From an uncultured Leptospirales bacterium (GTDB lineage: Bacteria > Spirochaetota > UBA4802 > UBA5550), in NCBI GenBank assembly GCA_964654045.1, contig CAZZHU010000007.1, positions 1-50,109 of the forward strand: a stretch of 50,109 nucleotides of DNA, written 5' to 3'. The position numbers were made by a program, and so were the translations under genes. Shown here in pieces: positions 1,250 through 47,199 of this stretch. The notes below the pieces were generated by a model. That model saw nothing but the letters and a program-made list of their open reading frames with translations. It had not been told where the DNA came from and did no database searches. How positions within the stretch are numbered: position 1 is the first letter of the stretch; each line of letters begins with the position of its first letter.

Positions 1250-2278
1250 ATGAGAATATTCAATGTCGCCTTATCACTGCTGGCAATGACCGTGACGGGC
1301 TGCAACCTTGACGCCATCGCCGGGAATAATTCAAAGAAAAGGGCCCTGCTGTTTGCGTCCTACAGCCAGCCGATCATCGCTGACCATACCATCGTTGCCG
1401 ACTATGACAGGATCCCGGCCCGGTACATGGCCGAGGTCAGGAAGATGATGGTGGCCTTCCCCGGCGAGTCCCATTCGGCGGCGTACCGGACCGGTATGGA
1501 ACTCCTGGAAGCGCAAAATCCCGCCTATGCCTGCAACGTGGGAATCGGAGAAGCACCGACAGATCAATATGTACGGGTCAACAACAGCGGTGCAGGGGAA
1601 GCCCAATGGTTCACATGGTACGCCTACGATGGGCACAATGATGGCGGTGCCAATATGAATACTATTAAAAACATGATAGCGGAATATGCAAGCCACGGGC
1701 ATCCGATACATGCCATTGGATTCGGCTGGTGCTGGGACCTGACACGGGATGGATTTTCTGCGGCTGCAGATCCAGTCTTCGGGTGCAGGTGGGCAGGATC
1801 ATCTGTCGGAGGCCCCGATGGAGACACAGACTGGGGTCTTGATGCCGCTGATTACGCTATAACGCTTAACCGTGTCAGCATGGACACCTATCTCGGGGCA
1901 ACAGATGACTATAATGCATATTGTGCCTTGAATGGATATATCACAAAAGCCGTCTTTACTACCGGCCCCGCAGACCTGTCCGGCGAATCCGGATACCAGG
2001 GTCACTTAAAACACGAGTATATGCGTAATTATGTCAGGGCCAATAAATCGAGAATACTGTTTGATTATGCGGATATCCTTAGCTACGATGATACCGGTGT
2101 TCAAAATACCACATCATGGGACGGACATACCTTTCCGACCATAGCCGACGACAACATGCTTGACATTGACGGTTCATACGCTGAAGACGGTGATCACATA
2201 GGAGAACGTGGTGCAGTGCGGCTCGCCAAGGCACAGTGGTGGATGCTGGCGCGCATCGCAGGCTGGAACGGCAACTGA
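1250..2278 (+). CDS. hypothetical lipoprotein
   Basis: N-terminus MRIFNVALSLLAMTVTGC has a signal peptide plus lipobox (VTG-C). No catalytic motif recognised. Long clean ORF with antisense shadow ORFs only. Confidence 0.7.
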   Translation: MRIFNVALSLLAMTVTGCNLDAIAGNNSKKRALLFASYSQPIIADHTIVADYDRIPARYMAEVRKMMVAFPGESHSAAYRTGMELLEAQNPAYACNVGIGEAPTDQYVRVNNSGAGEAQWFTWYAYDGHNDGGANMNTIKNMIAEYASHGHPIHAIGFGWCWDLTRDGFSAAADPVFGCRWAGSSVGGPDGDTDWGLDAADYAITLNRVSMDTYLGATDDYNAYCALNGYITKAVFTTGPADLSGESGYQGHLKHEYMRNYVRANKSRILFDYADILSYDDTGVQNTTSWDGHTFPTIADDNMLDIDGSYAEDGDHIGERGAVRLAKAQWWMLARIAGWNGN

Positions 2279-2464: not shown

Positions 2465-4540
2465 ATGAAAAGATTATTACAACCTGTTATTGTTATTCTT
2501 GTATTCTTTCAGTCAATGCCGCTGTTAGCTTCCGCTATTAATCTCGACAAGGAAATAATATATGTCCGCAAAGGTTTTGACACCGCCTGGCTGGATGTGA
2601 TTCCCTCCCCGGGCGACGGGGAATGGCTCGTAATTCCCGGCATCACGTCAGGCAGCAGGAAAGTCGTCCTTAAAGAGCTTCCCCTCGAGGGTATGCCCAG
2701 ACGGACCTTCCTATCCCCAAAAAAGTATCCGCCGGAAAATTTCACCTTCCTGACCTCTTTCACCATGGACGAAGAGGGCCCGGCGTTGAACAGCTTCCTC
2801 GGAATATTCTTCGCCAATATCGGCGAGAACTGGGCGGTTTACCTCAACGGCCATCTGGTAAGGTCGGAAATCCATGTCAACGGCAGGGGGGAGATAACCA
2901 GTTACCGTCATTCACGGGAAGTGCTCATACCCATTGACCCGCGCATTATGGTGACGGGGAGAAACATTCTCGCCGCCAGGATCATCGGCGATCCCACCAA
3001 CATAGATTCGGGATTTCACCGGAGCACGCCCTTTGTTATCGACACCATAGAACAGCTTCAAAAACTGCGCTCCGAGCAGGCAACCATAATACTGGTATTT
3101 CTCTATCTGTTTTTCGGCATATACCACCTTTTCATTTACATCCGGAGGCGTGACGAGCTGTTCAACCTGTACTACGCCCTGTTTTCCATTCTCCTGTTCG
3201 TTTATATCCTTTCCCGCACCCATGCGGTCTATGAATTCATAAGCGATTCGACCATACTGCACCGCGTCGAATACTGCTCGCTCTACGCCCTGGTGCCCCT
3301 TATCGGCGCCTTCGTCGACCTGCTCCTCACCGGGACCTGCAGCCGCCTTACGAAGATTTACGGCGCATTCTACGCCATCCTTGTTATTATCACGTTGATG
3401 CCGGTCTCCAATCCCTTCGCCATCGACATACTGAGGATATGGCAGGTTTCCGTCATCATCCCCCTTCTCTATTACCTGTTCGCCAGGATCGGATACCAGG
3501 TCTATAGCAACTGGAAAAGGATTTACGACCGCTACCGGGCGCATGCGCTCCCCTGCCGGATCATCAGGACAACAGAGCGCACGATTACGTCCACCACGCC
3601 GGGGAACCTCCTGGCGGGAGCCGTCATACTGGTGGCATGCGCGATTTTTGATATCGCCGATTCCATGTTCTGGGCCTACGATATAGTACTCACCCAGTAC
3701 GGATTTTTTGCCTTTACCATGGGGATAACCCTGATACTGGCCAACCGGTTCCTGAAAACCCACAAGGAACTGGAAAAGGGAAACGAGATCGCCGCCATTG
3801 AGATGGAACTGGCTGCCAACATGCAGAAAATGCTGCTCCCGCCGGTCCCCTCGTCCATAGAACACTGGGACATCGCCATGTCATTCATGCCGAAATACGG
3901 GGCTTCGGGCGATTTTTATGATTTCTACTATTCGGACAACCATCTCCAGGGGATAGCCCTCTTTGACGTATCAGGCCACGGTGTTTCATCGGCCCTCATA
4001 ACCATGATGGTAAAGCCCGTTACCTTCCGTGTTTTCAACACGATGAAGGGGGAAAACCTTGATACGGTCATGAACGTCGTCAATGAACATATCTCCCGGG
4101 ATTTATCCCGCCTTGACAATTTTGTGACCTGCATCCTCCTGCGGTTCCTGGACGACAGGGTCGAATACGTCAACGCCGGGCACCCTGACCTCCTGCACCG
4201 CGTCAGGAAATCGGGAGAGGTGCGGATAATCGATGCGGGGGAAAAAATTTTCCGGGGGGAACCGCTGGGGCTGGATATCAATCGCCACAGGCCTTCAGTC
4301 ATACAGTTCAGCGTGGAGAAAGACGACATCCTCCTGCTTTTCACCGACTGCATCCTGGACGCGAAAAATCCCGGGAAAGAGAGATACGGCATCGACCGGC
4401 TCATGAAATCGCTGGGAGATGCGCCGGATGGTTCCGCTGCCGATATCCTCGATTTTTTGCTGAAGAAATTCAATGCCTTTGTCAGGGACGTCGACCTGAG
4501 GGACGACTTCACGGTTATCCTGGCGAAGAAGACTTCGTAA
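2465..4540 (+). CDS. 7TMR-DISM receptor fused to PP2C/SpoIIE-type serine phosphatase (RsbU-like)
   Basis: Signal peptide, an extracellular region, about 7 hydrophobic helices (residues ~205-430), and a C-terminal SpoIIE signature SGDFYDF...ALFDVSGHGVSSAL...NAGHP...TDC. Confidence 0.85.
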   Translation: MKRLLQPVIVILVFFQSMPLLASAINLDKEIIYVRKGFDTAWLDVIPSPGDGEWLVIPGITSGSRKVVLKELPLEGMPRRTFLSPKKYPPENFTFLTSFTMDEEGPALNSFLGIFFANIGENWAVYLNGHLVRSEIHVNGRGEITSYRHSREVLIPIDPRIMVTGRNILAARIIGDPTNIDSGFHRSTPFVIDTIEQLQKLRSEQATIILVFLYLFFGIYHLFIYIRRRDELFNLYYALFSILLFVYILSRTHAVYEFISDSTILHRVEYCSLYALVPLIGAFVDLLLTGTCSRLTKIYGAFYAILVIITLMPVSNPFAIDILRIWQVSVIIPLLYYLFARIGYQVYSNWKRIYDRYRAHALPCRIIRTTERTITSTTPGNLLAGAVILVACAIFDIADSMFWAYDIVLTQYGFFAFTMGITLILANRFLKTHKELEKGNEIAAIEMELAANMQKMLLPPVPSSIEHWDIAMSFMPKYGASGDFYDFYYSDNHLQGIALFDVSGHGVSSALITMMVKPVTFRVFNTMKGENLDTVMNVVNEHISRDLSRLDNFVTCILLRFLDDRVEYVNAGHPDLLHRVRKSGEVRIIDAGEKIFRGEPLGLDINRHRPSVIQFSVEKDDILLLFTDCILDAKNPGKERYGIDRLMKSLGDAPDGSAADILDFLLKKFNAFVRDVDLRDDFTVILAKKTS

Positions 4541-10393: not shown

Positions 10394-10813
10394 TCAGCCG
10401 ATACTGTCGAAAAAGAGGCCCTCGCCTTCCTGAATGTGCTTGATGAGATCCGCGAATTCCTGGTGGGTGATATTTTTCCTCTTTACCTCGGCGACGTTGC
10501 CGTTGCCGTCCAGCCTGACCAGATTGATAAAGGTATCTTTCTCCTCCTGGTATATGTAAAACCGGTAGGGTGAATTTCTTTTTTCAAGCTCGTTATTAGC
10601 CTGGTCCGCGGCGATCTTCAGGCTCCCGAAGTGCTTCCCCGCTTCGTCAGGAAGCTCCTCTTTTTTGCCATGACCCCCCTCCCTTCTTTTCGCGTCAGGT
10701 TCAACCAGGGGATCGCGCGACCCGATCAGGTCTGACTTGTTGATTTTCTCAAGGTTTGAGGCCATCGCTTTATCCGATAGTTTTGTCAGTTCAAAATAGG
10801 GGTACAGATCCAT
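10394..10813 (-). CDS. FlaG-like flagellar protein
   Basis: C-terminal RFYIYQEEKDTFINLVRLDGNGNVAEVKRKNITHQEFADLIKHIQEGEGLFFDSIG parallels the FlaG family C-terminus (LKFELHE...VQIVD..T.EV.R.IP....L......GLFVD). By-eye only. Confidence 0.45.
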   Translation of the reverse strand: MDLYPYFELTKLSDKAMASNLEKINKSDLIGSRDPLVEPDAKRREGGHGKKEELPDEAGKHFGSLKIAADQANNELEKRNSPYRFYIYQEEKDTFINLVRLDGNGNVAEVKRKNITHQEFADLIKHIQEGEGLFFDSIG

Positions 10814-13577: not shown

Positions 13578-13610
13578 CCAAAAAACAGTGCCGGGGCTGC
13601 CGGCACTGTT
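13578..13610 (-). terminator. rho-independent terminator of small lipoprotein gene 1
   Basis: Stem aacagtgccgg (13584-13594) / ccggcactgtt (13600-13610), followed on the minus strand by TTTTT. Confidence 0.7.
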
Positions 13611-13662
13611 TCTGACATCTGGATTACGATACCCAGATGGCTTTTCTGTACGGTCGCCCCTT

Positions 13663-13902
13663 CTATTTGGCACCGTATTCCTTCGCGCATTTATCAATAC
13701 ATTTCTGTGCAACAGCGTCGCAAGCGGCTTTTTTCGTTTCGTTGACCTTCCCCTGCTTGTCTTTGGCCAGCTTGTCAACACATTGTTTTTTTGCCGTCTC
13801 GCATGCCTTATCGCATGATTCCCGTTTTACATTGACGCTTTTGCATGATATCATGCCCATTGTGAATAATACAGCCACTGCGATTATCAGTACTTTTTTC
13901 AT
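13663..13902 (-). CDS. small lysine-rich, cysteine-rich lipoprotein (paralog 1)
   Basis: MKKVLIIAVAVLFTMGMISC lipobox; mature part has C-x3-C-x6-C ... C-x6-C-x3-C. Strong RBS aaaggagg and its own terminator. Closely similar to the ORF at 14182-14418. Confidence 0.75.
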   Translation of the reverse strand: MKKVLIIAVAVLFTMGMISCKSVNVKRESCDKACETAKKQCVDKLAKDKQGKVNETKKAACDAVAQKCIDKCAKEYGAK

Positions 13903-14100
13903 CGAATCCTCCTTTCTGTTTTTTTCAAGTATTGTTGTTCAAATTATGATTCCCGGAGTAAAACCTTTTGCATTCCTGTTGGGATGCCCGGAATCTTATA
14001 CGATAATTTCACAACATGTAGAGTATTATAACAACACCCGGTATAATGCAATAATTTTTTTATTATTCCCGGCAAGTCTGCCACCGCTACATTTCCTCCT

Positions 14101-14138
14101 AAAAAAAGCAGTGCCGCTTTTACCGGCACTGCTTTTTT
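14101..14138 (-). terminator. rho-independent (bidirectional) terminator of small lipoprotein gene 2
   Basis: aaaaaa-agcagtgccg-cttttac-cggcactgct-ttttt read directly. Confidence 0.75.
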
Positions 14139-14181
14139 AGAATTAGATTTCGCATTACAACTGCGTGCTGTTATTACAATC

Positions 14182-14418
14182 CTACTTGGCACCATACTTC
14201 TTCGCGCACTCATTAATGCATTTCTGCGCAGCAGCATCGCATGCCGCTTTTTTAGCTGCGGGAATGTTTCCCTTTTTGTCTTTTGCTTTATCATAGCATT
14301 CTTTTTTAGCTGTTTCGCAGCCCTTGTCGCATGATTCCCGTTTTACATTGACGCTTTTGCATGATATCATGCTCATCATGAATACTGCCGCCATAGTGGT
14401 TATTATGATTTTTTTCAT
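14182..14418 (-). CDS. small lysine-rich, cysteine-rich lipoprotein (paralog 2)
   Basis: MKKIIITTMAAVFMMSMISC lipobox. KSVNVKRESCDK is identical to paralog 1, with the same Cys spacing. RBS aaggagg. Confidence 0.75.
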   Translation of the reverse strand: MKKIIITTMAAVFMMSMISCKSVNVKRESCDKGCETAKKECYDKAKDKKGNIPAAKKAACDAAAQKCINECAKKYGAK

Positions 14419-14449
14419 TTACTCCTCCTTTTGATTTTTTCCTGGATAT

Positions 14450-14478
14450 TTTATAAAATAAGGTTTTAATTTTTGCAA
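14450..14478 (-). promoter_or_regulatory. sigma70-like promoter candidate TTGCAA-N17-TATAAA
   Basis: ttgcaa at 14473-14478 and reverse complement of tttata at 14450-14455, about 30 nt upstream of the ATG at 14418. Confidence 0.4.
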
Positions 14479-14577
14479 CAATTTTTTTATCATCATTGTA
14501 GAATTCAAATTTTTATAGATTTCCTGCTGCATTGATCAATAGACTTCAGTGCAACAGCTTCCCGGCTGAACCATTCA

Positions 14578-15593: not shown

Positions 15594-15986
15594 TTAATTT
15601 TCCGGTTTGCCGTCAGTCTTATTTTCCGGTTTTACCATTCTTTTCAGGCCAGTCTTGCGCACCACATAATGGAGAACGGCATGATCACTCGTGACTTCAA
15701 TTTTTTCCGTTTTTCCGTCTTTATCCGGAGCCACCGATTCATTGAACGTTTCTTTTATGTAGTAATAGGCGCTCAACAATGCCGCCCTCTTTGATGATTC
15801 GATCTTCTGTATGCCCTTCAACCCATCCAGCGGATATCCGCGGCACACTATTTTGTATGTATTGTCATCGATAAATCCCCTGCTGATGAGCGACTCCCGG
15901 GGTCCCCCGCTTGTAACGCCTGCCTGGTCACAGCCTGCTACGACCGCCACGAACACCATTAAAACCAACAGCGATTTGATTTTCAT
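15594..15986 (-). CDS. hypothetical lipoprotein
   Basis: MKIKSLLVLMVFVAVVAGC is a signal peptide plus lipobox. No function recognised. Confidence 0.65.
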   Translation of the reverse strand: MKIKSLLVLMVFVAVVAGCDQAGVTSGGPRESLISRGFIDDNTYKIVCRGYPLDGLKGIQKIESSKRAALLSAYYYIKETFNESVAPDKDGKTEKIEVTSDHAVLHYVVRKTGLKRMVKPENKTDGKPEN

Positions 15987-18938: not shown

Positions 18939-20504
18939 ATGAAAAAAATAATAACACCAATCGCGCTTGCCCTGGCGCTGGCAGTATCACAACAGCTATT
19001 GGCCGCCGGCTATTACGACCAGGGACGGCGCCTGTACATCCGGAAGCAATACGAAAGGGCCAAGGATATGTTCCAGAAGGCCGCTGAATCGGGTGAATCA
19101 GGCAACGCCTATTATTTCCTCGGGGAGATCGAGAAAATCCAGGGGAACTACCGCGAAGCGGAGAACTACTACAAGACCGCGATAACAAAAAAAGGGATTT
19201 CCCGACAGTACCTGCTCAATTCCTACTGGAACGCCCTCCTCATGGCGGAACAGCGGAACGATTACGAAAGCGTGGTATCCACCTGCCGCTCGATGTGGCT
19301 CAAGACCGGGGACGCGTCGGCGCGCCAGAAGATCGAGTCGCTCATCAACAAGTTTCTCTGGTCCGACAACAACGAGGCCATTGATAAATACAACGAAGGC
19401 ATCACGCTCAAGAGGGCCGGGAAAACGGAGGATGCCATGAAGAGCTTTAACGACGCCCTGGGCATCGACGGCGCCTTCCTGGCCCCGAAATTCGAACTCG
19501 GCATGGCGGCTTACAAGAGCGGCGACCTCGACCGTGCCGCCGGCTACCTGGGGGACATCGCGGCAAAGATCCCCTTCTATACCGAGGTACAGCACGTGCT
19601 GGCGGACATACAGTTTAACAGGCACAACTACCGGGGCGCCATCAATTACTACGACAGGGTCATCGAGTTCGGCTTCCTGGGCGGCGCAACGGAGAACGAC
19701 ATACGCATCAGGCGCGGCACCTGCTACTACAACCTTGACGATTATCCGAACGCGGAAAAAGACATAGACAGGGCGATACGGAACAACGACAGATCGATTG
19801 ACGCGATGCTCCTCCTCTCGGCGATAAAGATCAAGATGGGAAAATACGGCGAGGCCATGAAAACCCTGCAGCATGCGAAAGCGGTCAGCCCCGACAATCC
19901 TGAAATACAATACCAGATCGGCAGCATCCACTACAAGGAAAACAACCCGCGCTACGTCGCCTCCTACGACCGGCTCTTCTCGCTGACAGCGGAAAAAAAG
20001 GACACCCCGTCCAGGTACAGGAAAGTCTTCCTCATACTGGCAAAAAACCACCATGAGAACAGGAACCACGCCCGGACGATCACGATTCTAAAGACCTTCG
20101 ACGAGAAATCCCAGACTTTCGAGACCCGCCTCCTGGCGGCAAAGGCATATTACGCTCTTAAAGAGTTCGACAAGGCCATCGATCACTTTGAAAAACTGTC
20201 GCTCGGAAATGACGACAAGTTCACCCTCTGCAAGGCATACGCGCAGAGCGGCAGGAGGGAAAAAGCGAAGAGCCTCCTCTCGGAGTTGTCAATGGGCGGC
20301 GACTATCTTGCCCGAGCCAGGCGGGACCCCCTGCTGTCGGGAATCGCCCGTGACCTGGAAGGCGGAAGCACGGTGAATAAACCGGAGCCGGAAAAAAAAG
20401 AGCCCGAGAAGAAGAAAGAACCGGAACCGCAGAAGAAAAAGAGCGCGGAAAAAGACGATTCCGATGACGAGGAAGATGATGACGATGAGGATAACCAGGA
20501 CTGA
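18939..20504 (+). CDS. secreted TPR-repeat protein with Lys/Glu/Pro-rich and poly-acidic C-terminal tail
   Basis: Start at MKKIITPIALALALAVSQQLLAAG (signal peptide; ATG 18939). Multiple TPR-like A/Y/G patterns. Tail is KPEPEKKEPEKKKEPEPQKKKSAEKDDSDDEEDDDDEDNQD. Confidence 0.8.
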   Translation: MKKIITPIALALALAVSQQLLAAGYYDQGRRLYIRKQYERAKDMFQKAAESGESGNAYYFLGEIEKIQGNYREAENYYKTAITKKGISRQYLLNSYWNALLMAEQRNDYESVVSTCRSMWLKTGDASARQKIESLINKFLWSDNNEAIDKYNEGITLKRAGKTEDAMKSFNDALGIDGAFLAPKFELGMAAYKSGDLDRAAGYLGDIAAKIPFYTEVQHVLADIQFNRHNYRGAINYYDRVIEFGFLGGATENDIRIRRGTCYYNLDDYPNAEKDIDRAIRNNDRSIDAMLLLSAIKIKMGKYGEAMKTLQHAKAVSPDNPEIQYQIGSIHYKENNPRYVASYDRLFSLTAEKKDTPSRYRKVFLILAKNHHENRNHARTITILKTFDEKSQTFETRLLAAKAYYALKEFDKAIDHFEKLSLGNDDKFTLCKAYAQSGRREKAKSLLSELSMGGDYLARARRDPLLSGIARDLEGGSTVNKPEPEKKEPEKKKEPEPQKKKSAEKDDSDDEEDDDDEDNQD

Positions 20505-21381
20505 CGCTGTCCCCATCGTGCTCCTCGCGACAGCGGCAGTGTCTGTCTGCGCTGTTAATCTCCTGATGAACGCCGCACCCGCGCACATGGTCTTCACCCT
20601 TATCGGCATCGGGGCGTATGCAGCCCTGGTCCGGCTCGGCGATTACGATCCGCACCTGGTATGCGACACCGTCCAGAGCGGCGAAGCCGCGGTGGGGACC
20701 TTCATCCTGTACGTCGCGGCGTTGTTCATTACCGCGAACCCGTACCTGCTCATGGCCCTCACCTTCACGGCCCTCGTCCTGTACCAGATCTTCATGAAGG
20801 GGGTCCTTGCCCCGGTCAAGAAGGAGATTGCCCTCAGCGGAGCTGCGGCGCAGGGCATCCTCGCCGTCATAGCCCTGTTTATTGTCGCCGGCGGGGCGCC
20901 TCTCCGGATACCCCTGGCGGGGACGGTCTTCACCGGGTATTTCTCAGCCATCGAGGTCCCGGCCGCCATACCGGCGTCTTCGCTTGCGATCGCGGTGATC
21001 ATCCCCGTTATATTGAAGGCATTGAACCCGGAAATGCGGCTCCTGTCACAGGGACCGCCCTTCTCCCGGGGCACGCGCCGGTCCCGCGCCGGCGCCGCCG
21101 TTGGACTCATCGCGGCCCGCAGCCTTCTGGCGGCGGTTTCGCTCCTTTTTGCCGGATGGACCTGCGGCATCGGGATCAGCATGCGGCGCCTCCACCGGGG
21201 CGCGCTGCCGGACCCGGTCATGGTCCTTTCCCTGGTCTGTCTCGGGCAGATCGCGGTCCTGGTAGAAATTCTCTCCGGGCCCCTCCAGGCCGCAGCCGCT
21301 TCATGGGTCATATCATACGCGATTTTTTTCCTGTACTACAGCAGGAGGGTTCATTTATATGATCGATATCAGCAATCTTAG
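20464..21381 (+). CDS. polytopic membrane protein, diverged FecCD/BtuC-like ABC permease
   Basis: MRLLSQGPPFSRGTR...LFAGWTCGIGISMRRLHRGALPD parallels BtuC MNMLALGEISARQLG...[24 protein letters not shown] (by eye). Start is probably an internal Met (20476-20485). Overlaps neighbours at both ends, indicating an operon. Confidence 0.5.
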   Translation: MTRKMMTMRITRTDAVPIVLLATAAVSVCAVNLLMNAAPAHMVFTLIGIGAYAALVRLGDYDPHLVCDTVQSGEAAVGTFILYVAALFITANPYLLMALTFTALVLYQIFMKGVLAPVKKEIALSGAAAQGILAVIALFIVAGGAPLRIPLAGTVFTGYFSAIEVPAAIPASSLAIAVIIPVILKALNPEMRLLSQGPPFSRGTRRSRAGAAVGLIAARSLLAAVSLLFAGWTCGIGISMRRLHRGALPDPVMVLSLVCLGQIAVLVEILSGPLQAAAASWVISYAIFFLYYSRRVHLYDRYQQS

Positions 21382-36940: not shown

Positions 36941-38014
36941 TTAAATATATTCAACAATTTTTTTTGGAATTTCAGATAAAGGGACAATATCATCGATACC
37001 GCCCTTTTCCACGGCAACGCGATTCATGCCATAGACAATGGAGGTTTCCTCGTTCTGGGCTATGGTTTTCCCTCCGGCTTCCCTGATCCTGGTTATGCCT
37101 TCCGCGCCATCGCGTCCCATCCCGGTCATTATGACTGCCACCGTGTTCCTGCCGGTGGTCGCCGCCATTGAGTCAAAAAGCACGTCAATCGAGGGCCGAT
37201 GCCCGCTGACCTTTTCTCCCTGAAAAACCCTGACATAGCGGTTGTTGTTTTTTTCTTCTATGGCGATGTGCTGGTTGCCCGGGGCAACATAGGCGCATCC
37301 GGGAAGGACCTGGTCCATATCCTGGGCTTCCTTTACCTTGAGCTGAGACATGGTATCAAGCCGTTCGGCAAAGGCCCTGGTAAAACCTTCCGGCATGTGC
37401 TGCACCACCAGTATCGACGAAGGAAAATTGGGCGGAATATTCGTGAACACCTGCATGAGGGCCGCCGGTCCGCCGGTCGACGTGCCGATCCCCACGATCC
37501 GCGAACTGGCGCTCTTCCTGTCAGCGGGAAAGGCGGGCTTTTTATCGGCTGCCGTGCCGGCCGCCTCCACGGCCGTTCTTTTTCTGAGCGGTGTTTCCCC
37601 GCTGTCTACCCTGGACTGGCTGACCGATTTGACCTTTGAGCGCAGCAGTTCGGCTATATCATTGATCGACAGGGAAACCATCGAAGACGGCTTGGGGATG
37701 AAATCGACCGCTCCGTATTCCAGCGCCTTGAAGGTCTCCTCGGCGCCGTGCTGCGTGAAAACGCTCAGCATGATGACCGGCTTTGGATTTGTTGATATTA
37801 TGGTCCGCAGGGCAGTAAGCCCGTCCATGACGGGCATCTCGATATCCATGGTAATGACGTCCGGGTTGAGCTCTTTCGTCAGCTTGACCGCCATCTCGCC
37901 GTTCTCGGCGGCGCCAACAACCTTGATCAGGGGGTCGCTCTCCAGACTTTCGGTAATGATTTTCCTTACCAGGGTCGAATCATCGACCACCAGTACCTTA
38001 ATTGGACCCGACAT
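36941..38014 (-). CDS. cheB: protein-glutamate methylesterase/deamidase CheB
   Basis: Receiver domain (VLVVDDS, TMDIEMP) plus methylesterase domain (GTSTGGPAAL, VVQHMP, GMGRDGA). Its start overlaps the cheA stop by 17 nt. Confidence 0.9.
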   Translation of the reverse strand: MSGPIKVLVVDDSTLVRKIITESLESDPLIKVVGAAENGEMAVKLTKELNPDVITMDIEMPVMDGLTALRTIISTNPKPVIMLSVFTQHGAEETFKALEYGAVDFIPKPSSMVSLSINDIAELLRSKVKSVSQSRVDSGETPLRKRTAVEAAGTAADKKPAFPADRKSASSRIVGIGTSTGGPAALMQVFTNIPPNFPSSILVVQHMPEGFTRAFAERLDTMSQLKVKEAQDMDQVLPGCAYVAPGNQHIAIEEKNNNRYVRVFQGEKVSGHRPSIDVLFDSMAATTGRNTVAVIMTGMGRDGAEGITRIREAGGKTIAQNEETSIVYGMNRVAVEKGGIDDIVPLSEIPKKIVEYI

Positions 38015-41000
38015 TAGACCTCATGCGCTCAACAATAATCTTAAGTGAATCGGACTCAGGAAGGAAAAGGAGGTTTCCGATGATCTTGTCATTCGCCAGA
38101 TAGAATGCCGTATCCATTATTACCGCGTAATCGCTCAGCATGTTATGAAGAACCAGGATCGAATCTATCACCGATTGCAGATAGTCGTGCACGATGGTGG
38201 GCAGGCCGGCACGAATGACCAGGTTCGATTTCTCGGCAATGACGTTGATAACTGAAGAACCAACGATATTTGTCAATTCCTGAAGTGCTGATTGACCGTC
38301 CTCGTTGAACTCATGGGTTGTTTTGGACGCGAGACCGTATAATAAATCTATCACCTCGAAACCGGTGTTTTCCTTGAATATGAACAGCACGGTTCCCCGG
38401 GTATCGCCGAGGATGGGCATCATGATGCCCATGTAGATGCTGTCGATATCGCCGATATGCTTGGGTATCTGCTCGATGGGCATGACCGTGACTTCCGGTA
38501 TCGAAAGGTCGATCTGCTTGTTCAGTATCTTTGAAAGGGACTCCGCGGCGTTGGCGGCCCCGATATTCGCAACGAGCTGGAATTCCCGCAATTCATCCTT
38601 GGTCAGAGAAATGGAATCAGCCATATGTTCCGACGGAAGACCGGTTTCCGCCGTTGACTTGATGCTCTCGCGCAGTTCATCCCTGAATTCATCAAGGGCC
38701 CTGTGTACCCTCAGCTCGATTTTGGCGTCGGATTCCGGGGCCCCTGCCTGCGGTTTACCCGGTTCCGGCTGCGAGAACGCCCGAACGACATTATCCGGCT
38801 TTTTCTCGACGAATTCCCGTGCCGCCGGTTCAGGTTTTTTCTCTTCCGCGGGCGCCGGTTTCTTCGCTTCAGCTGCCTTTGCCTCGGAGAAAAGTCTCAC
38901 GCCGGTCTTCTCCTTCTGCCCGACCGCGGGCGCCGCTTCGCGGACGGCAGGCCTGCCGACCGTCACCTTCGGCTGTATCTCTTCATCGGGTATCTCTTCC
39001 ACATCGGCTTCGTCCACTTCGACGATCCGCTTGTGGTCATACTTCGTTATCTTATCCTGCTCGAGGATAACCTTGTTTATCATCGAGGAAATATCCAGTA
39101 TCAGGCATATGCTGCCGTCGCCCAGGATCGAGGCCCCCGCGAGGCCCTCGACGGTCTTATAATTCTGCTCAAGGGACTTGATGACAATCTCCAGTTTTCC
39201 CTCGAGATAGTCGACGATGAGCCCTATCTTCCGGTTGCCGAACCCGACAACCACGACCGGCATCTTGTCGTCGGGGCCGAGGGCGCTTTCCTGTTTGACA
39301 AAGCGCGACAGGCGCAGCAGTGACAGGATCTCGCCCCTGAGGTTGATAACCTCATGGCCTTCAATGGTGGTTATGTCCGACTGCGAAATCTTTATGGTCT
39401 CGATAACGTCGGTAAGCGGTATCGCGTACATCTCGTTGCGCACCTTCACCATGATGGCGGGAATGATCGCCAGCGTTATGGGGAAGGAAAGGACGAAACG
39501 CGTCCCCATGCCCCACTCCGTCTCGATGGAGACTGAGCCGTTCAGTTCGCTCACGATCTCCTTCACGACGTTCATGCCGACGCCGCGTCCCGAAATGTCC
39601 GTTATCTTCTCGGCCGTGGAGAAACCGGGCATAAAAATATAATTATAGATATCCGTGTCGTCCATGGCGGCAATCATTTCCGGGGTCGCCAGCCCCGTGG
39701 CCACCGCCTTCCGCTTTATCTGGTCGAGGTTGAGCCCGCGGCCGTCATCGCTGACATCGACGAAGATCTGGTTGCCGCTCTGGTACGCGTTCATGGTGAT
39801 GTGGGCCATTTCCGATTTGCCCAGTTTTTTCCTCTCCCCGGCGGATTCAATGCCGTGGTCGACGGCGTTCCGCAGCAGGTGCAGAAGGGGTTCGCCGATG
39901 GAATCAATGACCTTCTTGTCGAGCTCGGTGTCCTCGCCCTTGATGGTGAGTTCCACCTCCTTGTTGAATTCCTTGGCAAGGTCCCTGACCAGCCGCCGGA
40001 ACCGGGTGAACACCTGGCCTATGGGAACCATCCTGGTTTTCATGATACCGCTTTGCAAATCCTTGGCGATGCGCGACATCTGCTCCATGCGGCTCTTGAA
40101 TTCGTTGATAATCGATTTTTCTTCGCTGATCTTCCGCATCTCTTCATACAGCTTGAAGAAGCCGGAGTTAGCGATGACCAGTTCCCCGACATTATTGAGC
40201 AGCAGGTCGAGTTTATCGATGGAGACCTTCACGGTCTTGAGCATCATGACTTTTTTCTTTCCGTCTTTATCGGCGCCCTTGCCGGCACCCGCTTCAACGT
40301 CAACCCCTTCCTCTTCGTCATCTTCATCTTCACCGGCATCATCGGCTTCTTCTATCCCGAAGGTCTCCCTGCCTGCAAGTGAGCCGCCTTCGGCCCGCAT
40401 TTCTCCCTGTTCGGGCTCGCCGGAATCACCGTAGAAGGATTCACTGTCGCTGAACTGAAGAACCAGCTTGTCGTCTTTCCGGTTCAAACGTATCGTCCGT
40501 ATATCAATCCGGTGTATCAGGTCTATGTTGGCGGTGCGCCGCAACTCCTCGCTGGACTGCTCCGTCAGGATGACTATTTTAACGACATTGTTCATCCCGT
40601 CATCGCTCATATCCTCCATGGAGGGAAACGTGGCCACGATGTCTCCCAACTTTCCCAGGTTGTTGACGACCAGCTGGGCCTTGACCCATTTCATCTGGGC
40701 CTTGTCGTCAATGAACACGGTCACCTCGCAGCAGGAATAACCTTTGTCCAGGCCGTCCTTTATCTGCCTGCGCATGCCGGCATCGAGCATCGTCTTGGGC
40801 ACCTCGTACTCATGCTGGCCGTCAGTGACGATCTCTTTTGCAGCCTTCTTTTCCCCTTTTTTCGGCCGCGTCGATTTATCGCAGATGGCCTTGATGTCGT
40901 CGATGAGCCACTGCAGGTCCTGTTCCGGTTTCTCGCCGGAGGCTATGGTGTCGATGACATTGTGTATCTCGTCGAAACACTTGAAGATGATGTCTATTAT

Positions 41001-41258
41001 TTCAGGAGTAATGCCCATGCTGCCGTCCCGGATGCCCTGAAGAAGGTTCTCCATCATGTGGGCAAGATCGCTGAGCTCGTTCAGGCCGACGAAAGCGGCC
41101 GAGCTTTTCAGCGAATGGGCGGCCCGGAAAATGTTGTTTATGATTTCGAGATTCTCCGGGTTTTTCTCCAGTTCCAGCAGGTTCTGGTTCAATTCCTGGA
41201 GCTGTTCGTCAGCTTCTTCGAGAAAGATATCCTGGTATTCGCCAAGAGAGAAAGCCAT
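37998..41258 (-). CDS. cheA: chemotaxis histidine kinase CheA with extra C-terminal CheC/CheX-like domain
   Basis: P1 Hpt (FRAAHSLKSSAAF), P2-like region, P3, P4 (HLLRNAVDHGIE, DDGRGL, GRGVGMNVV), P5 CheW-like domain, a Pro/Ala/Lys/Glu-rich linker, then about 200 aa with NIGAANAAESLSKIL and SALQELTN-x22-P. ATG at 41256-41258 is preceded by ggaga; the ORF-track TTG at 41279 is less likely. Confidence 0.9.
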   Translation of the reverse strand: MAFSLGEYQDIFLEEADEQLQELNQNLLELEKNPENLEIINNIFRAAHSLKSSAAFVGLNELSDLAHMMENLLQGIRDGSMGITPEIIDIIFKCFDEIHNVIDTIASGEKPEQDLQWLIDDIKAICDKSTRPKKGEKKAAKEIVTDGQHEYEVPKTMLDAGMRRQIKDGLDKGYSCCEVTVFIDDKAQMKWVKAQLVVNNLGKLGDIVATFPSMEDMSDDGMNNVVKIVILTEQSSEELRRTANIDLIHRIDIRTIRLNRKDDKLVLQFSDSESFYGDSGEPEQGEMRAEGGSLAGRETFGIEEADDAGEDEDDEEEGVDVEAGAGKGADKDGKKKVMMLKTVKVSIDKLDLLLNNVGELVIANSGFFKLYEEMRKISEEKSIINEFKSRMEQMSRIAKDLQSGIMKTRMVPIGQVFTRFRRLVRDLAKEFNKEVELTIKGEDTELDKKVIDSIGEPLLHLLRNAVDHGIESAGERKKLGKSEMAHITMNAYQSGNQIFVDVSDDGRGLNLDQIKRKAVATGLATPEMIAAMDDTDIYNYIFMPGFSTAEKITDISGRGVGMNVVKEIVSELNGSVSIETEWGMGTRFVLSFPITLAIIPAIMVKVRNEMYAIPLTDVIETIKISQSDITTIEGHEVINLRGEILSLLRLSRFVKQESALGPDDKMPVVVVGFGNRKIGLIVDYLEGKLEIVIKSLEQNYKTVEGLAGASILGDGSICLILDISSMINKVILEQDKITKYDHKRIVEVDEADVEEIPDEEIQPKVTVGRPAVREAAPAVGQKEKTGVRLFSEAKAAEAKKPAPAEEKKPEPAAREFVEKKPDNVVRAFSQPEPGKPQAGAPESDAKIELRVHRALDEFRDELRESIKSTAETGLPSEHMADSISLTKDELREFQLVANIGAANAAESLSKILNKQIDLSIPEVTVMPIEQIPKHIGDIDSIYMGIMMPILGDTRGTVLFIFKENTGFEVIDLLYGLASKTTHEFNEDGQSALQELTNIVGSSVINVIAEKSNLVIRAGLPTIVHDYLQSVIDSILVLHNMLSDYAVIMDTAFYLANDKIIGNLLFLPESDSLKIIVERMRSNVGSN

Positions 41259-41398
41259 AATCGGTCTCCACGATTTCAATTAACAGGCCGCTATCGATAC
41301 ATTGCCTGGCACCGGTACCGCGATCACCGCGTCACCGGTAAAAACGAGCGGCGTCTGGAAGCCATCTTCATGGTGTCCCAAACCCGGACACTACTGCA

Positions 41399-41926
41399 TC
41401 ACTTCTGCTCTGTGTCTTCTTCGAGGAAAAGGATATTCGACAGATTCAGTATGACTATCAATCGGTCCTTCAACCTTCCAATGCCCCATATATACTCTTC
41501 CGACACTCCCTCGATCAACTCGGAAGGAGGATCGATATTATTCCGCGAAATCCTGACAACCTGGTGAACGTTATCAACCATCAATCCCGTCAGCTTATCG
41601 CTCGTCTCTATAACGATAATGCGGGTCAGGTCCGTGATCCTTGCCCGGGAAAAGCCGAACCTCTTCCGGACGTCAACCACGGGGATCACGTTGCCCCTCA
41701 GGTTGATGACCCCCTTGATGAAATCAGGAGTATTCGGCAGGCGGGTAATTTCCGGAAACCGCAGGATCTCATGAACCGCAAGGATATCCACCCCGTATTC
41801 CACATCTTCAAGAACGAAACTTACCAGCTGAATGATGGAGCCCTCGGAAATAAACTCCTCTTCCTCTTCACCGGATATTTTAACATTCAACTGTTCCTGC
41901 TTGTCTATCAGTTCATTCAGATCCAT
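41399..41926 (-). CDS. cheW: chemotaxis coupling protein CheW
   Basis: VSFVLEDVEYGVDILAVHEILRFPEITRLPNTPDFIKGVINLRGNVIPVVDVRKRFG. Confidence 0.9.
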   Translation of the reverse strand: MDLNELIDKQEQLNVKISGEEEEEFISEGSIIQLVSFVLEDVEYGVDILAVHEILRFPEITRLPNTPDFIKGVINLRGNVIPVVDVRKRFGFSRARITDLTRIIVIETSDKLTGLMVDNVHQVVRISRNNIDPPSELIEGVSEEYIWGIGRLKDRLIVILNLSNILFLEEDTEQK

Positions 41927-42068: not shown

Positions 42069-44024
42069 TCACTTTTTAAGACTGGAGAGTCTCTTTTTAC
42101 CTGTCTCGAAATAAATATGCCCCTTTGACACGACCACATTGCTCGAGGTAATCCGCGGCAGCAGAAGGGACCAGGTTACGTCGCCGGTCATTTTATCCAC
42201 GACAAACAGGGTCTCGCTGGCCGGCACGTAGAAACTTGCGGCATCTTCCGAAGGCCTCTGCATAATGGGAATGCCGATATCGCGGCTCCAGACCAGATCC
42301 CCCCCGTCGCTGATCCGGTGGATCCGCCCGCTCCGCCCGAAAAGATACACGGAATGTCCGGTAACGGCCATGTCGCACGCGATGGCGTCATTGACCTGGT
42401 ATTCCCACAGCATTTCATCGTCACCGTAATTATAGCAGTACAAACGGCCCGCGTCGGTGGCAATGTAAATCTCACGATTCCCGGCCGCTATTGAAACGAT
42501 GCTTCCGCGGATACTGACCCTGATGACCTTCAAACCGCTGGACTTGTCAAACCCGAAGAGGCTCCCCTTCCGGGTCGAGATAAAAACAAGATTGTCCGCT
42601 ATCACGGGCACCGTTGAAATGATCTCGTCCGTCTTCACGCTCCACACTACCCCGCCGCCACGGTCGATCTTGCACAGTGTCCCCCCTGATGTCGCGCAAT
42701 AGATCCCGCTGCCGTCAAGCTTCAGGGTGGCACTCCCGGTCCTTCCGCCCGGGATCCGGACGCGCCATCGTGTCCCGCCGGTTAACAGATCAAACCTGGA
42801 GATACTGTCCGTGCCTGCGGCAATATAAAGCGACATTTCTTCATGAACGGGATAAGACAGAATCGGGACGTCAAGCGGCACGGACCATTGCACATTATTG
42901 GACCGGATTGACATCAGTCGCCCGTTGCCGATCTTGATGACGCTGTCCAGAACGGGAATATACATGAGGAACACGTTGCCGGGACCGGGCGCGGCATCGC
43001 GCCCCGCTGACGGCTTCATCCGCGCGTCCCGCCCGGCGGCGTCGAATTTCACGCCGCTGCCGGATGAAGATTTGACCAGGCGGTCCATATCATCCCGCAT
43101 TACCGTCATGCCCCGGACCGGCACCGGCAGTTTCAGCGTCGCCATAACGCGGACCGCCTCCATTCCGGTAATGGATTCCAGCTGGACAGGATCAACACCG
43201 ATCGCGCATGCCTGGTCCCGCGACACTTCAAGGGCATGGTCCCGGAAGTACCGGTCAAGGACCTTCGCGGTCTCCGTGTCCGCCGGCATATCCGCCGGCA
43301 GGCATCTCCTCACGCGCACCCTTCCCTCGTAAACTTCGAAGCGGACTCCGCCCCTGCCGTCAACCATGACGCCGAACCTGGTGCCCCGCACGACGGCAAC
43401 GGACGCGGGCGTATGGACTGAAACCGAATCCCCGCGCCCCAGCCTGCTCACGTCCAGGACGCAACCGCCGCCGGTCACCAGGGCATCGAAAACCCGCTCG
43501 CGGCCGTTCAGTGTAATGGTCCGGAGCGCGACCCGGCTGCCGCCGAGGATCCGCATCCGCAATAAATTCGTGAATTGTATTTCGGCTGAAGAACCGGCCC
43601 CGGCGACAACCACGTCGCCGCCGGACACGGGATCGCCGGCCCGCAGGACCCGCTCGCCCCCGCCGCGGCTCACCGTCACATCGCCTGAAACAATACCGGC
43701 GGAGCCGGAGCGTCCGGCGCGCATGAAGTCCAGCGTGCCCGTCAGGACCAGGACGATGATCGACGCGGCGACACCGGCCGGGACCAGCGCCCACCGGGCC
43801 TTTTTCGGTATCCGGGCCGCCGCGCGGGCGCGCTGCGACAGGGAACGGCGCCGCCCTGCCATGACCCGCGGATCGAGGGCAATCCCCGGCCACGATTCGG
43901 GAACGTTCAGCTCGGCGCATTCCAGGATGCGGGCCAGCTTCGCGTGATGGATCTCCCGGTACCGCCTTTTCGAGCGGAGAGCCTCAAGCGCGTCTCTCAT
44001 GTCAGGTCCCTCTTTCATCATCAT
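42069..44024 (-). CDS. putative anti-sigma factor: N-terminal cytoplasmic segment, TM helix, FecR-like domain and PQQ/BamB-like beta-propeller repeats
   Basis: Immediately downstream of the ECF sigma gene. TM helix WALVPAGVAASIIVLVLTG. GDVTVSRGG...LRAGDPVSGGDVVVAGAGSSAEIQF is FecR-like. The C-terminal half has repeated W-containing beta-strand units (VQWSV, TRWRV, VVWSV, MLWEY, LVWSR, VTWSL). Confidence 0.6.
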   Translation of the reverse strand: MMMKEGPDMRDALEALRSKRRYREIHHAKLARILECAELNVPESWPGIALDPRVMAGRRRSLSQRARAAARIPKKARWALVPAGVAASIIVLVLTGTLDFMRAGRSGSAGIVSGDVTVSRGGGERVLRAGDPVSGGDVVVAGAGSSAEIQFTNLLRMRILGGSRVALRTITLNGRERVFDALVTGGGCVLDVSRLGRGDSVSVHTPASVAVVRGTRFGVMVDGRGGVRFEVYEGRVRVRRCLPADMPADTETAKVLDRYFRDHALEVSRDQACAIGVDPVQLESITGMEAVRVMATLKLPVPVRGMTVMRDDMDRLVKSSSGSGVKFDAAGRDARMKPSAGRDAAPGPGNVFLMYIPVLDSVIKIGNGRLMSIRSNNVQWSVPLDVPILSYPVHEEMSLYIAAGTDSISRFDLLTGGTRWRVRIPGGRTGSATLKLDGSGIYCATSGGTLCKIDRGGGVVWSVKTDEIISTVPVIADNLVFISTRKGSLFGFDKSSGLKVIRVSIRGSIVSIAAGNREIYIATDAGRLYCYNYGDDEMLWEYQVNDAIACDMAVTGHSVYLFGRSGRIHRISDGGDLVWSRDIGIPIMQRPSEDAASFYVPASETLFVVDKMTGDVTWSLLLPRITSSNVVVSKGHIYFETGKKRLSSLKK

Positions 44025-44033
44025 GCGCCCGTT

Positions 44034-44603
44034 TCAGAGAACTCCCTTCTCCGATAAATAGTGCGCTATTTTCTCCAGCGCCTTCTCCATCCGCCATTTT
44101 GCCGTCCGCTCGGAACAGTTCATGATAGCGGCTATTTCAGAATATTTCATCCTGTGGTCATGCCTCAATATGAACACCGTTTTGAATTTATCCTTCAGGT
44201 TTTCAACCGAGCGGCTCAATTCCTCCAGGTCATGCTCCGTTATGCATATATCCTCGGGCGATTCCTGCTGCTGGCGCCCGCCGGCCATCCTGTAGCGTTC
44301 CTGCTCCATCAGCCGGATCTCCCGCCCCCTTTTGCCGATGAAATTCTTGCTGCAATTGACCGCAATCTGGTAAATCCACGAGGAAAAGGATTTCCTCACA
44401 TCGAATGTTTCAATATGCCTGAATACCCGTATGACGGCATCCTGGAGCACATCGTTCGCTTCGTCGACATTGGGAATATAGTAGTAGATAAGGCGCTTGA
44501 GCTTCTGTTCATACCGGCCGTATAACTCGGTAAAGGCATGTTCGTTTCCGGCCTTATACGCCAGCACAAGCTCCTCGTCGGTAAACAGCTTTAAATCCTG
44601 CAT
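44034..44603 (-). CDS. ECF-type RNA polymerase sigma-70 family factor
   Basis: Region 2 (FTELYGRYEQKL...DVLQDAVIRVFRHIETFD...SWIYQIAVN) and region 4 HTH (MKYSEIAAIMNCSERTAKWRMEKA). Confidence 0.85.
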   Translation of the reverse strand: MQDLKLFTDEELVLAYKAGNEHAFTELYGRYEQKLKRLIYYYIPNVDEANDVLQDAVIRVFRHIETFDVRKSFSSWIYQIAVNCSKNFIGKRGREIRLMEQERYRMAGGRQQQESPEDICITEHDLEELSRSVENLKDKFKTVFILRHDHRMKYSEIAAIMNCSERTAKWRMEKALEKIAHYLSEKGVL

Positions 44604-46258: not shown

Positions 46259-47179
46259 CTATATCTGCATGCTCATTTCAATACCGTAGATGGCCTGGAT
46301 GAAATTATGCTGCGACGCCCGGAGCGGATTCTGCACCGTATAGACCCCCAGGTACAGGGCCTCCATGAAAAAATACCGGAGCCCGGCGCTCATTAAAAAG
46401 GTGTTATACCGGGCGGCCTCGATGGGGACATCGCCGGTATTGATATAATCACCGGTGACCCTGACTGACCCGTTACACTCAATGTACGGCACGAAGGGAT
46501 AAAAATAATTCGTATTCCACGCCATTGAGAAGGTCAGGTAATCATTCTTGATCCTGTCAATGTTCAGGAATGTATTTTTCGCCTTCGGGTTCAGGCCAAA
46601 CACCTTCTCCCACGTTTCACTTTTTGTTATGTTCAGGTAGAAGCCGCCCCAGAAGTCCTCCGCGTTGCCTTCGCGGAAGGTGTAGAACATGTTCAGGTGG
46701 ATGAAAAAAACGTCCAGGACATCAAAGCGGAAGAAGGGCCCCATCTTCAATTCATACTTGCCCAGGGCGAGATTACGCCATTCTTCGTTGGCATAGGCGT
46801 TCTTGGCCAGCGGGAACCGCAGGCTTATCAGGAAGCCCAGGTGAACCTGATTGCGGGCGAAATCGCCGATATAGAATTTTCCCTTAATAAAAAGGTCGCC
46901 TATATCCGCCCTGTTTATCCTGAAGGCGCTCTGGCTCAGGATATCAAAGTTGAGCCAGAGGGAAAATTCATCTGTCGCGCCGAATCCCAGGCCGATGCTG
47001 TCCTTTCTGGACCAGCGGTCGGTCTGACACACCTCATCGCGGAGATAAATCTCGACGGCATACTCCGGGACCATGTAGATCGTTTCGGTGAGCGGCAGGG
47101 CATCGGCCCTGTTCACGGCGGTCAGAAACAGAATTAGCGCTATACCGATAGCGCTAACCTTCTGTTTCATGAGAATCAT
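46259..47179 (-). CDS. secreted, probably beta-barrel outer-membrane-like hypothetical protein
   Basis: Start at MILMKQKVSAIGIALILFLTAVNRADA (signal peptide; 47177-47179 or 47168-47170). Aromatic-rich alternating pattern. The ORF-track N-terminal extension overlaps rplT and is rejected. Confidence 0.55.
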   Translation of the reverse strand: MILMKQKVSAIGIALILFLTAVNRADALPLTETIYMVPEYAVEIYLRDEVCQTDRWSRKDSIGLGFGATDEFSLWLNFDILSQSAFRINRADIGDLFIKGKFYIGDFARNQVHLGFLISLRFPLAKNAYANEEWRNLALGKYELKMGPFFRFDVLDVFFIHLNMFYTFREGNAEDFWGGFYLNITKSETWEKVFGLNPKAKNTFLNIDRIKNDYLTFSMAWNTNYFYPFVPYIECNGSVRVTGDYINTGDVPIEAARYNTFLMSAGLRYFFMEALYLGVYTVQNPLRASQHNFIQAIYGIEMSMQI

Positions 47180-47199
47180 GGCGGGATTTGCTGCTGCGG

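Follow-up and report, generated by a model that had tools for sequence, protein, structure and literature searches.

A rare spirochaetal family of small six-cysteine proteins with a predicted α-hairpin fold and a proposed disulfide ladder

How could a bacterial envelope protein of about 60 residues fold when its cysteines are arranged in mirror symmetry, and what would those cysteines do? The question is raised by two tandem genes, here called A and B, on the minus strand of a 50,109-nucleotide (nt) stretch of DNA (the window) from an uncultured Leptospirales bacterium (GenBank assembly GCA_964654045.1, contig CAZZHU010000007.1, positions 1 to 50,109). We propose, with a probability of roughly 55%, that the products of A and B are exported, envelope-associated α-hairpins held together by a ladder of cystines.

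Two paralogous genes share a mirrored six-cysteine framework

The initial annotation of this locus described two paralogous minus-strand genes of 78–79 residues, and both open reading frames (ORFs) are present where it placed them (Table 1). Their products are 71% identical (56 of 79 residues, E 5e-30) and have MISCKSVNVKRESCDK in common. The cysteines occupy positions 20, 30, 34, 41, 61, 68 and 72 in A and positions 20, 30, 34, 41, 60, 67 and 71 in B. Downstream of the lipobox-like Cys20, the spacing is C-x3-C-x6-C-x19-C-x6-C-x3-C in A and differs in B only by a central gap of 18 residues, which bears out the mirrored arrangement first reported. A six-frame scan of the window found this six-Cys motif solely at genes A and B. 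Counting Cys20, the mature parts comprise 60 residues in A and 59 in B, with 15 lysines each and net charges of +7 and +8.

The nucleotide similarity of the two genes (78%) is confined to the ribosome-binding site and the coding region. The ratio of non-synonymous to synonymous substitution rates (dN/dS) between A and B is 0.134 overall and 0.075 in the mature part, and synonymous sites are saturated in codons 33–79 (proportion of synonymous differences, pS, 0.79). The two copies thus arose by an old duplication, and strong purifying selection acts on each of them. At the level of sequence, A and B are confirmed as real paralogous genes.

Codons 16–31 of the two genes contain a 46-nt stretch, GCATGATATCATGCAAAAGCGTCAATGTAAAACGGGAATCATGCGA, which is identical between positions 13811–13856 in A and 14327–14372 in B. 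The dS within it is 0.11, as against the pS of 0.79 in codons 33–79. A short gene-conversion tract is the likeliest origin of the stretch, which also breaks the short-read assembly of the source run at both places.

The cysteine framework defines a discrete spirochaetal family

When 1.84 billion representative sequences were searched exhaustively by HMMER with a profile of A and B, 16 proteins were returned at E <= 1e-3, of which 13 are 68–79 residues long and contain a signal peptide and the same six cysteines. The other three (P0014, P0016 and P0017) lack the Cys motif and were set aside as unrelated repeat proteins. Searches iterated with the alignment of the family raised the number to about 45 clusters, taken at 90% identity. 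The family is discrete, with no match between E 5e-9 and E 10, and all members with a name are annotated as “hypothetical protein” in metagenome-assembled genomes of Spirochaetota or Spirochaetes. Two of the genomes with the family are GCA_041753395.1 and GCA_033811455.1. As far as these matches tell, the family is rare and Spirochaetota-specific. The one match in the reference genomes (L001) was spurious, since it lies within a 1062-residue ORF on the opposite strand and involves signal-peptide residues only; the species of the window is apparently absent from these genomes. A scan of viral contigs found no relatives and no sign of phage origin.

The six cysteines are invariant in alignments of 14 and 25 sequences and are the only invariant residues of the family. 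Their conservation in orthologs had been set as a check by the initial annotation, and it holds in every relative found. All 31 members analyzed by script fit the pattern C-x3-C-x6-C-(13 to 23)-C-x6-C-x3-C, as do, by eye, the 14 members found later; the loops are 13, 17–19 or 23 residues long. In three clusters (P0015, P0032 and P0033), the same helical face bears a seventh Cys. The net charge ranges from −7 to +9, so that the strongly cationic character ascribed to the peptides is true of A and B and does not extend to the family. A lipobox-like Cys is located about ten residues ahead of the first motif Cys in 19 of the 31 members, and the others have ordinary signal peptides. Because charge and lipobox vary in this way, Lys-richness and lipid anchoring are traits of the A/B clade, and the Cys framework is the signature of the family.

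No described bacterial family had been recognized at the outset, and the searches agree. Pfam scans of A, B and 25 aligned members gave no match above threshold and no family common to more than three of the 25; NCBIfam, PHROGs and PADLOC likewise contain no model that matched above threshold, and there is no significant match in the PDB.

The ORFs are short, and a single-sequence, word-indexed search with A returned A alone, as might be expected if the ORFs were spurious or the Cys pattern a product of chance in low-complexity sequence. This explanation is already refuted by the conservation data, namely the dN/dS of 0.075, the approximately 45 conserved clusters with invariant cysteines and the conserved synteny described below. 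Gene A is also covered by an RNA-derived contig. We give the explanation next to no probability.

Predicted structure and register of the cysteines

AlphaFold2 predicts the antiparallel helix-loop-helix that was suggested from the Cys spacing, with the cysteines on the facing sides of the helices. When two sequences were used, the helices spanned residues 21–47 and 55–76, with a mean predicted local distance difference test score (pLDDT) of 70.8. The use of 25 sequences gave helices at residues 25–46 and 55–76 and a mean pLDDT of 75.6, and in this model the ten-residue means over the Cys-bearing cores are 91 (residues 31–40) and 93 (residues 61–70). Foldseek searches of the PDB with both models returned generic helical hairpins only, with best E values of 2.9 and 0.93.

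Position-by-position analysis identified one narrow conserved face on each helix. The seam of helix 1 is made of C30, C34, A37, C41 and a near-invariant Ala (A46 in A), and that of helix 2 of C61, F/A/Y at position 65, C68, C72 and Y/F at position 76. The seam spacing is 4-3-4-4 on both helices. Small residues (Ala, Ser or Gly) flank the seam, and the remaining surface is polar. A hydrophobic core is nearly absent, save for one modest ridge beside the seam, and the domain would therefore need covalent or metal staples for its stability. The residue numbers of the pairs 30 and 72, 34 and 68, and 41 and 61 add up to 102 in A, and those of the equivalent pairs to 101 in B. The constant sum puts the two cysteines of each pair opposite each other in an antiparallel hairpin whose turn is near residue 51, in agreement with the predicted loop. 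A tightly packed, stapled two-helix unit would fit the narrow Cys/Ala seam and the scarcity of hydrophobic core, and a four-helix bundle would not.

Disulfide ladder or metal site

Based on these features, a path from synthesis to function can be proposed for A and B. The proteins would be exported by the Sec pathway, and their signal peptides removed. In the A/B clade, lipidation of Cys20 would tether the protein to the periplasmic face of a membrane through a linker of about ten residues. The remaining approximately 50 residues would form two antiparallel helices joined by a loop, with a length of about 3 nm and the narrow seam of cysteines and small residues between the helices, and three ladder disulfides (C30–C72, C34–C68 and C41–C61) would staple the hairpin. 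The product would be a rigid, protease-resistant mini-scaffold of the cystine-stabilized α-hairpin type. In the A/B clade, its Lys-rich surface would most plausibly engage an anionic partner in the envelope, for example, peptidoglycan or lipid head groups. We infer lipidation, disulfides and abundance for A and B; a binding or structural role as an abundant rigid envelope module, taken alone, is a tentative proposal.

The same two-helix hairpin could also keep its six cysteines reduced and hold soft metals (Cu(I), Zn or Cd), as a minimal periplasmic metal buffer, store or chaperone. Analogues of such a protein are polycopper Cox17, metallothioneins and the Cys-lined bundles of the copper-storage proteins (Csp). 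A metal site would account for the cysteines being the sole invariant residues and for the seventh Cys that P0015, P0032 and P0033 carry on the Cys-bearing face, and the likely anaerobic habitat speaks against routine periplasmic disulfides (PMC12453122). The matches to zinc-ribbon or zinc-finger models (DUF2614, E 0.0049; phrog_24502, E 0.0013) and to vanabin2 (E 6.2) that point the same way are weak and all below significance. The strict one-to-one mirrored register and the small-residue seam, however, are what direct helix–helix cross-links require. The domain has neither His or Met co-ligands nor a CxxC motif, one narrow Cys stripe per helix cannot line the core of a four-helix bundle like that of Csp, and no metal-homeostasis gene is located nearby in the eight contexts examined. 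We regard metal binding as rather unlikely, and the disulfide ladder is favored because of the mirrored register, the small-residue seam and the identity of the framework with that of a solved disulfide-laddered hairpin, neurotoxin B-IV.

Several observations weigh against the stapled envelope module. The host looks anaerobic because of the bioreactor metagenome from which the DNA comes and of the Fer4/DUF362 and nitroreductase proteins encoded in the window. In obligate anaerobes, exported proteins tend to be without Cys, and the source consulted names Leptospira alone among spirochaetes for a DsbA/VKOR pathway (PMC12453122); the 50-kb window contains no Dsb-type or metal-homeostasis gene. 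The seventh Cys of P0015, P0032 and P0033 makes the number of cysteines odd, which suits a thiolate site better. Some members of the family are acidic (net charge −7) or have no lipobox, and charge-based binding or anchoring is not a family-wide function. No partner gene is conserved across the contexts examined. The transcript evidence comes from a sediment metatranscriptome, in which a contig about 93% identical to A spans the 3′ part of the gene and the 3′ untranslated region up to the terminator. This contig has a depth of 10, versus 2.1–5.5 for the other listed contigs of the 19-kb neighborhood, among which the near-identical ones (at least 95%) are at 3.5–4.1, but contig depth is a poor measure, and the value is only a hint of high expression.

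A tally of cysteines in the other exported proteins of the window was considered as a gauge of periplasmic redox conditions and rejected, because the sample is too small.

Probable export and lipid anchoring

The N-termini of A and B consist of MKK, a 13-residue hydrophobic stretch and the sequence G/S-M-I-S-C20, and thus contain the basic n-region, hydrophobic h-region and lipobox Cys of a bacterial lipoprotein signal. Their lipobox departs from the rules of E. coli; in spirochaetes, the motif is less strict. Cys20 is probably lipid-modified in the A/B clade. Signal peptides are present throughout the family, and we infer that A and B are exported.

The Braun lipoprotein Lpp of E. coli has a 78-residue precursor, a 58-residue mature form and a C-terminal Lys, and is expressed from a monocistronic gene with strong signals. 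A and B are, like Lpp, small and helical in prediction, with mature parts of about 58 residues, a C-terminal Lys and probable abundance, and their monocistronic layout, strong Shine-Dalgarno sites and terminators resemble those of lpp. The proteins might therefore act as a tether of the same kind, with the lipid anchor at Cys20 and the C-terminal Lys79 covalently attached to peptidoglycan. Of the first 31 members, 19 have a lipobox, and a C-terminal Lys is present in 16 of these; the neighboring MurJ and M23 peptidase act on the cell wall. A terminal Lys is, however, unsurprising in a protein with about 25% Lys. It tracks clades, including the FDLNL clade without a lipobox, and is missing from the lipobox-bearing P0013, P0015, P0029 and P0059. 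Lpp is a parallel trimeric coiled coil, whereas A and B are predicted to be Cys-seamed hairpins, have no hydrophobic heptad core for such a trimer and are not homologous to Lpp; the Pfam scans gave no LPP match. A hairpin puts the N- and C-termini at one end and therefore cannot span a gap. We consider a covalent tether very improbable.

Expression signals

Each gene was originally credited with its own ribosome-binding site, promoter and terminator, and Shine-Dalgarno sites, promoter-like sites and stem-loops followed by T-tracts are indeed found at both (Table 1). An automatic promoter and terminator scan listed no minus-strand sites, and the promoter and terminator sites were read and folded by hand. 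The promoter block of gene A is conserved upstream of its orthologs in three related lineages (L002, L013 and L014), and a comparable hairpin is located 3′ of the ortholog in L002. Blocks composed of an A-tract, TTGCA[AT] and a −10 element are also seen, by eye, ahead of distant family genes in L006 and L008. The consensus Shine-Dalgarno sites, promoter blocks and strong terminators together suggest high constitutive expression, which points to an abundant component of the envelope rather than an enzyme.

Table 1 Features of genes A and B in the 50,109-nt window
Feature	Position	Strand	Description
Gene A	13663-13902	minus	79 residues; signal peptide at residues 1-19, lipobox-like G-M-I-S-C20, 59-residue six-Cys domain
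Gene A, predicted helix 1	13765-13830	minus	Residues 25-46 with C30, C34 and C41; AlphaFold2
Gene A, predicted helix 2	13675-13740	minus	Residues 55-76 with C61, C68 and C72; AlphaFold2
Gene A, Shine-Dalgarno	13908-13915	minus	AAAGGAGG, 5 nt ahead of ATG; read directly from sequence
Gene A, promoter-like block	14025-14062	minus	A-tract, ATTGCA (14047-14052), N16, TG-extended TATAAT (14025-14030)
Gene A, intrinsic terminator	13579-13613	minus	GC-rich stem, then T6; fold of the region -36.6 kcal/mol
Gene B	14182-14418	minus	78 residues; tandem duplicate without L45, altered loop GNIPAA
Gene B, Shine-Dalgarno	14424-14431	minus	AAAGGAGG, 5 nt ahead of ATG; read directly from sequence
Gene B, promoter-like block	14450-14490	minus	A-tract, TTGCAA (14473-14478), N17, TATAAA (14450-14455)
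Gene B, intrinsic terminator	14101-14138	minus	9-bp GC-rich stem, then T7; fold of the region -32.2 kcal/mol

The leader of gene A (13903–14024) contains an insertion of about 85–95 nt between the promoter and the ribosome-binding site, which is also present in the L002 ortholog and missing from L013 and L014. The insertion holds the inverted repeat GATTCCGGG...CCGGGAATC (13948–13995), for which support from covariation is minimal with two sequences. Rfam has no match in the locus or the window, the leader hairpin included. Since the insertion is common to A and L002 only, the hairpin was rejected as a feature of the family.

Genomic context and duplication history

The genes at this locus run from a 130-residue lipoprotein through a PfkB kinase, B, A and an M23/SH3 peptidoglycan peptidase to a HEAT-repeat protein. 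Four related lineages, L002 (GCA_041753395.1), L005, L013 and L014, have this order with a single Cys-rich gene. The single copies in L002, L013 and L014 encode 79 residues and have L45 and the loop DKLAKDKQGKV, as A does; L005 has a 76-residue copy at the same place, between PfkB and M23/SH3. No second copy was found in any of the four syntenic relatives, which answers, for these lineages, the question of paralog copy number in related genomes posed by the initial annotation. The shared length, L45 and loop identify A as the ortholog in the ancestral position and B as a lineage-specific duplicate. In run X2 (2016), contigs at least 99% identical to the window on both flanks end at 14000 and 14495, leaving copy B and its promoter uncovered. 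The X2 strain may have no copy B or a different copy, or the assembly may be broken there.

The gene directly precedes the M23/SH3 peptidase in the window and in the four related lineages, and the hairpin might accordingly be a scaffold that binds, regulates or inhibits a hydrolase, either this endopeptidase or a protease or lysozyme of foreign origin. Trypsin is inhibited in a comparable manner by some plant α-hairpin peptides, and binding modules typically combine an invariant scaffold with a variable surface. The adjacency is, however, lost in the distant members from L006, L008, L009 and L011, which have unrelated neighborhoods and are always stand-alone genes. A and B have their own promoters and terminators and form no operon with the peptidase, and the selection between them is purifying rather than diversifying. 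A role in binding a hydrolase is thus improbable, and the gene orders compared suggest that the M23 peptidase is a neighbor through inherited synteny. A recurring upstream gene of about 130–137 residues was rejected as a partner, because the protein in L006 and L007 is unrelated to the 130-residue lipoprotein of the window.

This predicted lipoprotein (15594–15986, minus strand) has the lipobox VAGC and matches no family of Pfam or NCBIfam. Counterparts in L002 and L005 are 56–74% identical to it, similar proteins are encoded at the same position in L013 and L014, and one conserved non-lipobox Cys is part of the motif K(I/V)VCRG(Y/F)PL.

The window is otherwise an ordinary chromosomal stretch, with genes for chemotaxis, aromatic amino-acid biosynthesis, ribosomal protein S1, ScpA/B, MurJ, a Fer4/DUF362 protein and a nitroreductase, and the host is a motile, probably anaerobic spirochaete. 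The CheA protein (37998–41279, minus strand, 1093 residues) contains Hpt, P2, dimerization, ATPase and CheW domains and a C-terminal CheC-like domain, and is encoded in a cluster with CheW (41399–41926) and CheB (36941–38014). The gene of an extracytoplasmic function (ECF)-type sigma factor (44034–44603, minus strand) is followed by that of a 651-residue protein with a FecR domain and a PQQ/BamB-like β-propeller (42069–44024, minus strand). The two are probably a sigma/anti-sigma sensing pair. L002 contains an IS200/IS605-type Y1 transposase gene (2899–3489) between a TPR gene and murJ; the matching intergenic region of the window has no long ORF. Four ORFs have no Pfam match at E <= 1e-5: 1250–2278 (plus strand, 342 residues), which has a lipoprotein-like start (LAMTVTGC), 20464–21381 (plus strand, 305 residues), 46259–47377 (minus strand, 372 residues) and 10394–10813 (minus strand, 139 residues).

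Significance and comparison with known systems

In the literature consulted, disulfide-laddered α-helical hairpins come from eukaryotes only, as animal toxins, plant defense peptides and proteins of the mitochondrial intermembrane space. A conserved, partly lipid-anchored family of the same architecture in bacteria would show that the mini-fold also arose in the bacterial periplasm, and the A/B family would offer a very small and genetically simple scaffold. The state of the cysteines, disulfide or metal ligand, would inform on the redox or metal chemistry of the envelope of uncultured Spirochaetota. If they form disulfides, these anaerobes must have a capacity for periplasmic oxidative folding so far undescribed for them. 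If they instead clamp a small metal-thiolate cluster, for example of Cu(I), between the two helices, the family would be a new and minimal kind of metal store or chaperone in the periplasm of anaerobic spirochaetes, lipid-anchored in part, and in effect a bacterial “two-helix metallothionein”. The practical stakes are modest, as the family is rare and has no link to disease or to a major open question.

Plant α-hairpinins and the twin-Cx3C and twin-Cx9C proteins of mitochondria were named as comparable folds by the initial annotation, which the comparison of frameworks corrects: the nemertean neurotoxin B-IV comes nearest, and the hinge protein of the bc1 complex is next. B-IV of Cerebratulus lacteus (PDB 1VIB) has the framework C-x3-C-x6-C-x2-C-x10-C-x3-C-x6-C-x3-C and includes the entire bacterial framework C-x3-C-x6-C-x17-C-x6-C-x3-C, so that six of six Cys columns align. 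From the side of the toxin, six of the eight positions of the nemertean B-neurotoxin framework are present in the family, and the inner pair is missing. Like A and B, B-IV is Lys-rich and of similar size (55 residues); unlike them, it has a fourth, inner disulfide and is a secreted animal toxin without a lipid anchor. Its four disulfides hold a well-defined helical hairpin in solution (PMC6410017). B-IV scores E 2.5 against the family profile in a search of PDB sequences and a probability of 14% in hhalign, and is thus an analogue and not a homolog.

The bc1 hinge QCR6/UQCRH, in the forms of PDB 8ZNO and 9F5X, also has six mirrored cysteines, in the arrangement C-x3-C-x9-C-x13-C-x9-C-x3-C. It is located in the mitochondrial intermembrane space, the topological counterpart of the periplasm. 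The hinge differs from the family in its x9 rather than x6 spacing and in being a subunit of a respiratory complex. Its scores, E 1.1–1.9 against the family profile and an hhalign probability of 4.8%, are not significant and make it likewise an analogue, and neither A, B nor the 25 aligned members match the Pfam model UCR_hinge. The twin-Cx9C (CHCH) and twin-Cx3C (small Tim) proteins are helix-loop-helix domains with mirrored Cys pairs and interhelix disulfides, which reside in an oxidizing compartment of extracytoplasmic type. They have two cysteines per helix against three in the family, with other spacing, and are eukaryotic and Mia40-dependent. The same set of sequences gave no Pfam CHCH or Tim match.

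Plant α-hairpinins are defined by the motifs CX3C-X4-20-CX3C (4C) or CX3CX3C-X4-20-CX3CX3C (6C) (PMC11591084). The family has CX3CX6C-X13-23-CX6CX3C instead, and the gap from CX3C to CX3C is at least 27 residues. The helix-loop-helix of α-hairpinins is predicted for the family by AlphaFold2 (helices at residues 25–46 and 55–76). Along with the vicilin-buried peptides, α-hairpinins have ladder disulfides, a CX3C on each helix and often a cationic character (PMC11591084; bioRxiv 10.1101/2020.05.26.118075). An aromatic residue four positions past the last Cys is conserved both in these peptides (bioRxiv 10.1101/2020.05.26.118075) and in the A/B family. The peptides differ in their plant origin, shorter length and, in many cases, excision from larger precursors, and have no sequence homology to the family. 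A survey of the fold found ladder-like disulfide connectivity in all observed cases, and the word “bacteria” is absent from its text (bioRxiv 10.1101/2020.05.26.118075). Its reference list indicates that disulfide-stabilized helical hairpins include protease inhibitors (bioRxiv 10.1101/2020.05.26.118075).

Within bacteria, a search of the literature on α-hairpin lipoproteins and on Leptospira Cys-rich lipoproteins found nothing relevant. The Leptospira families TIGR04454 (Lepto_4Cys), TIGR04453 (Lepto_8Cys) and NF047434 (LA_0364) resemble A and B in being small spirochaetal proteins that start with a signal peptide or lipobox and conserve several cysteines. They are the best-scoring curated models for A, with 21.5 versus 35 bits, 17.8 versus 34 and 18.2 versus 40, respectively, and the signal peptide contributes to each score. 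All NCBIfam models of Leptospira Cys-rich proteins remained below their curated cut-offs (best E across 14 members 5e-5), and searches from the A/B family recover no Leptospira lipoproteins of these models. The Cys-lined four-helix bundle of Csp is not seen in the family, which has two helices with one narrow Cys stripe each; the positions flanking the stripe are polar, unlike the Csp core. Neither Foldseek against the PDB nor the profile against PDB sequences gave a Csp match.

Based on the predicted models, the architecture of A and B would be one already well known from eukaryotic peptides, and the family would represent a bacterial, partly lipid-anchored, three-rung variant of the cystine-stabilized helical hairpin.

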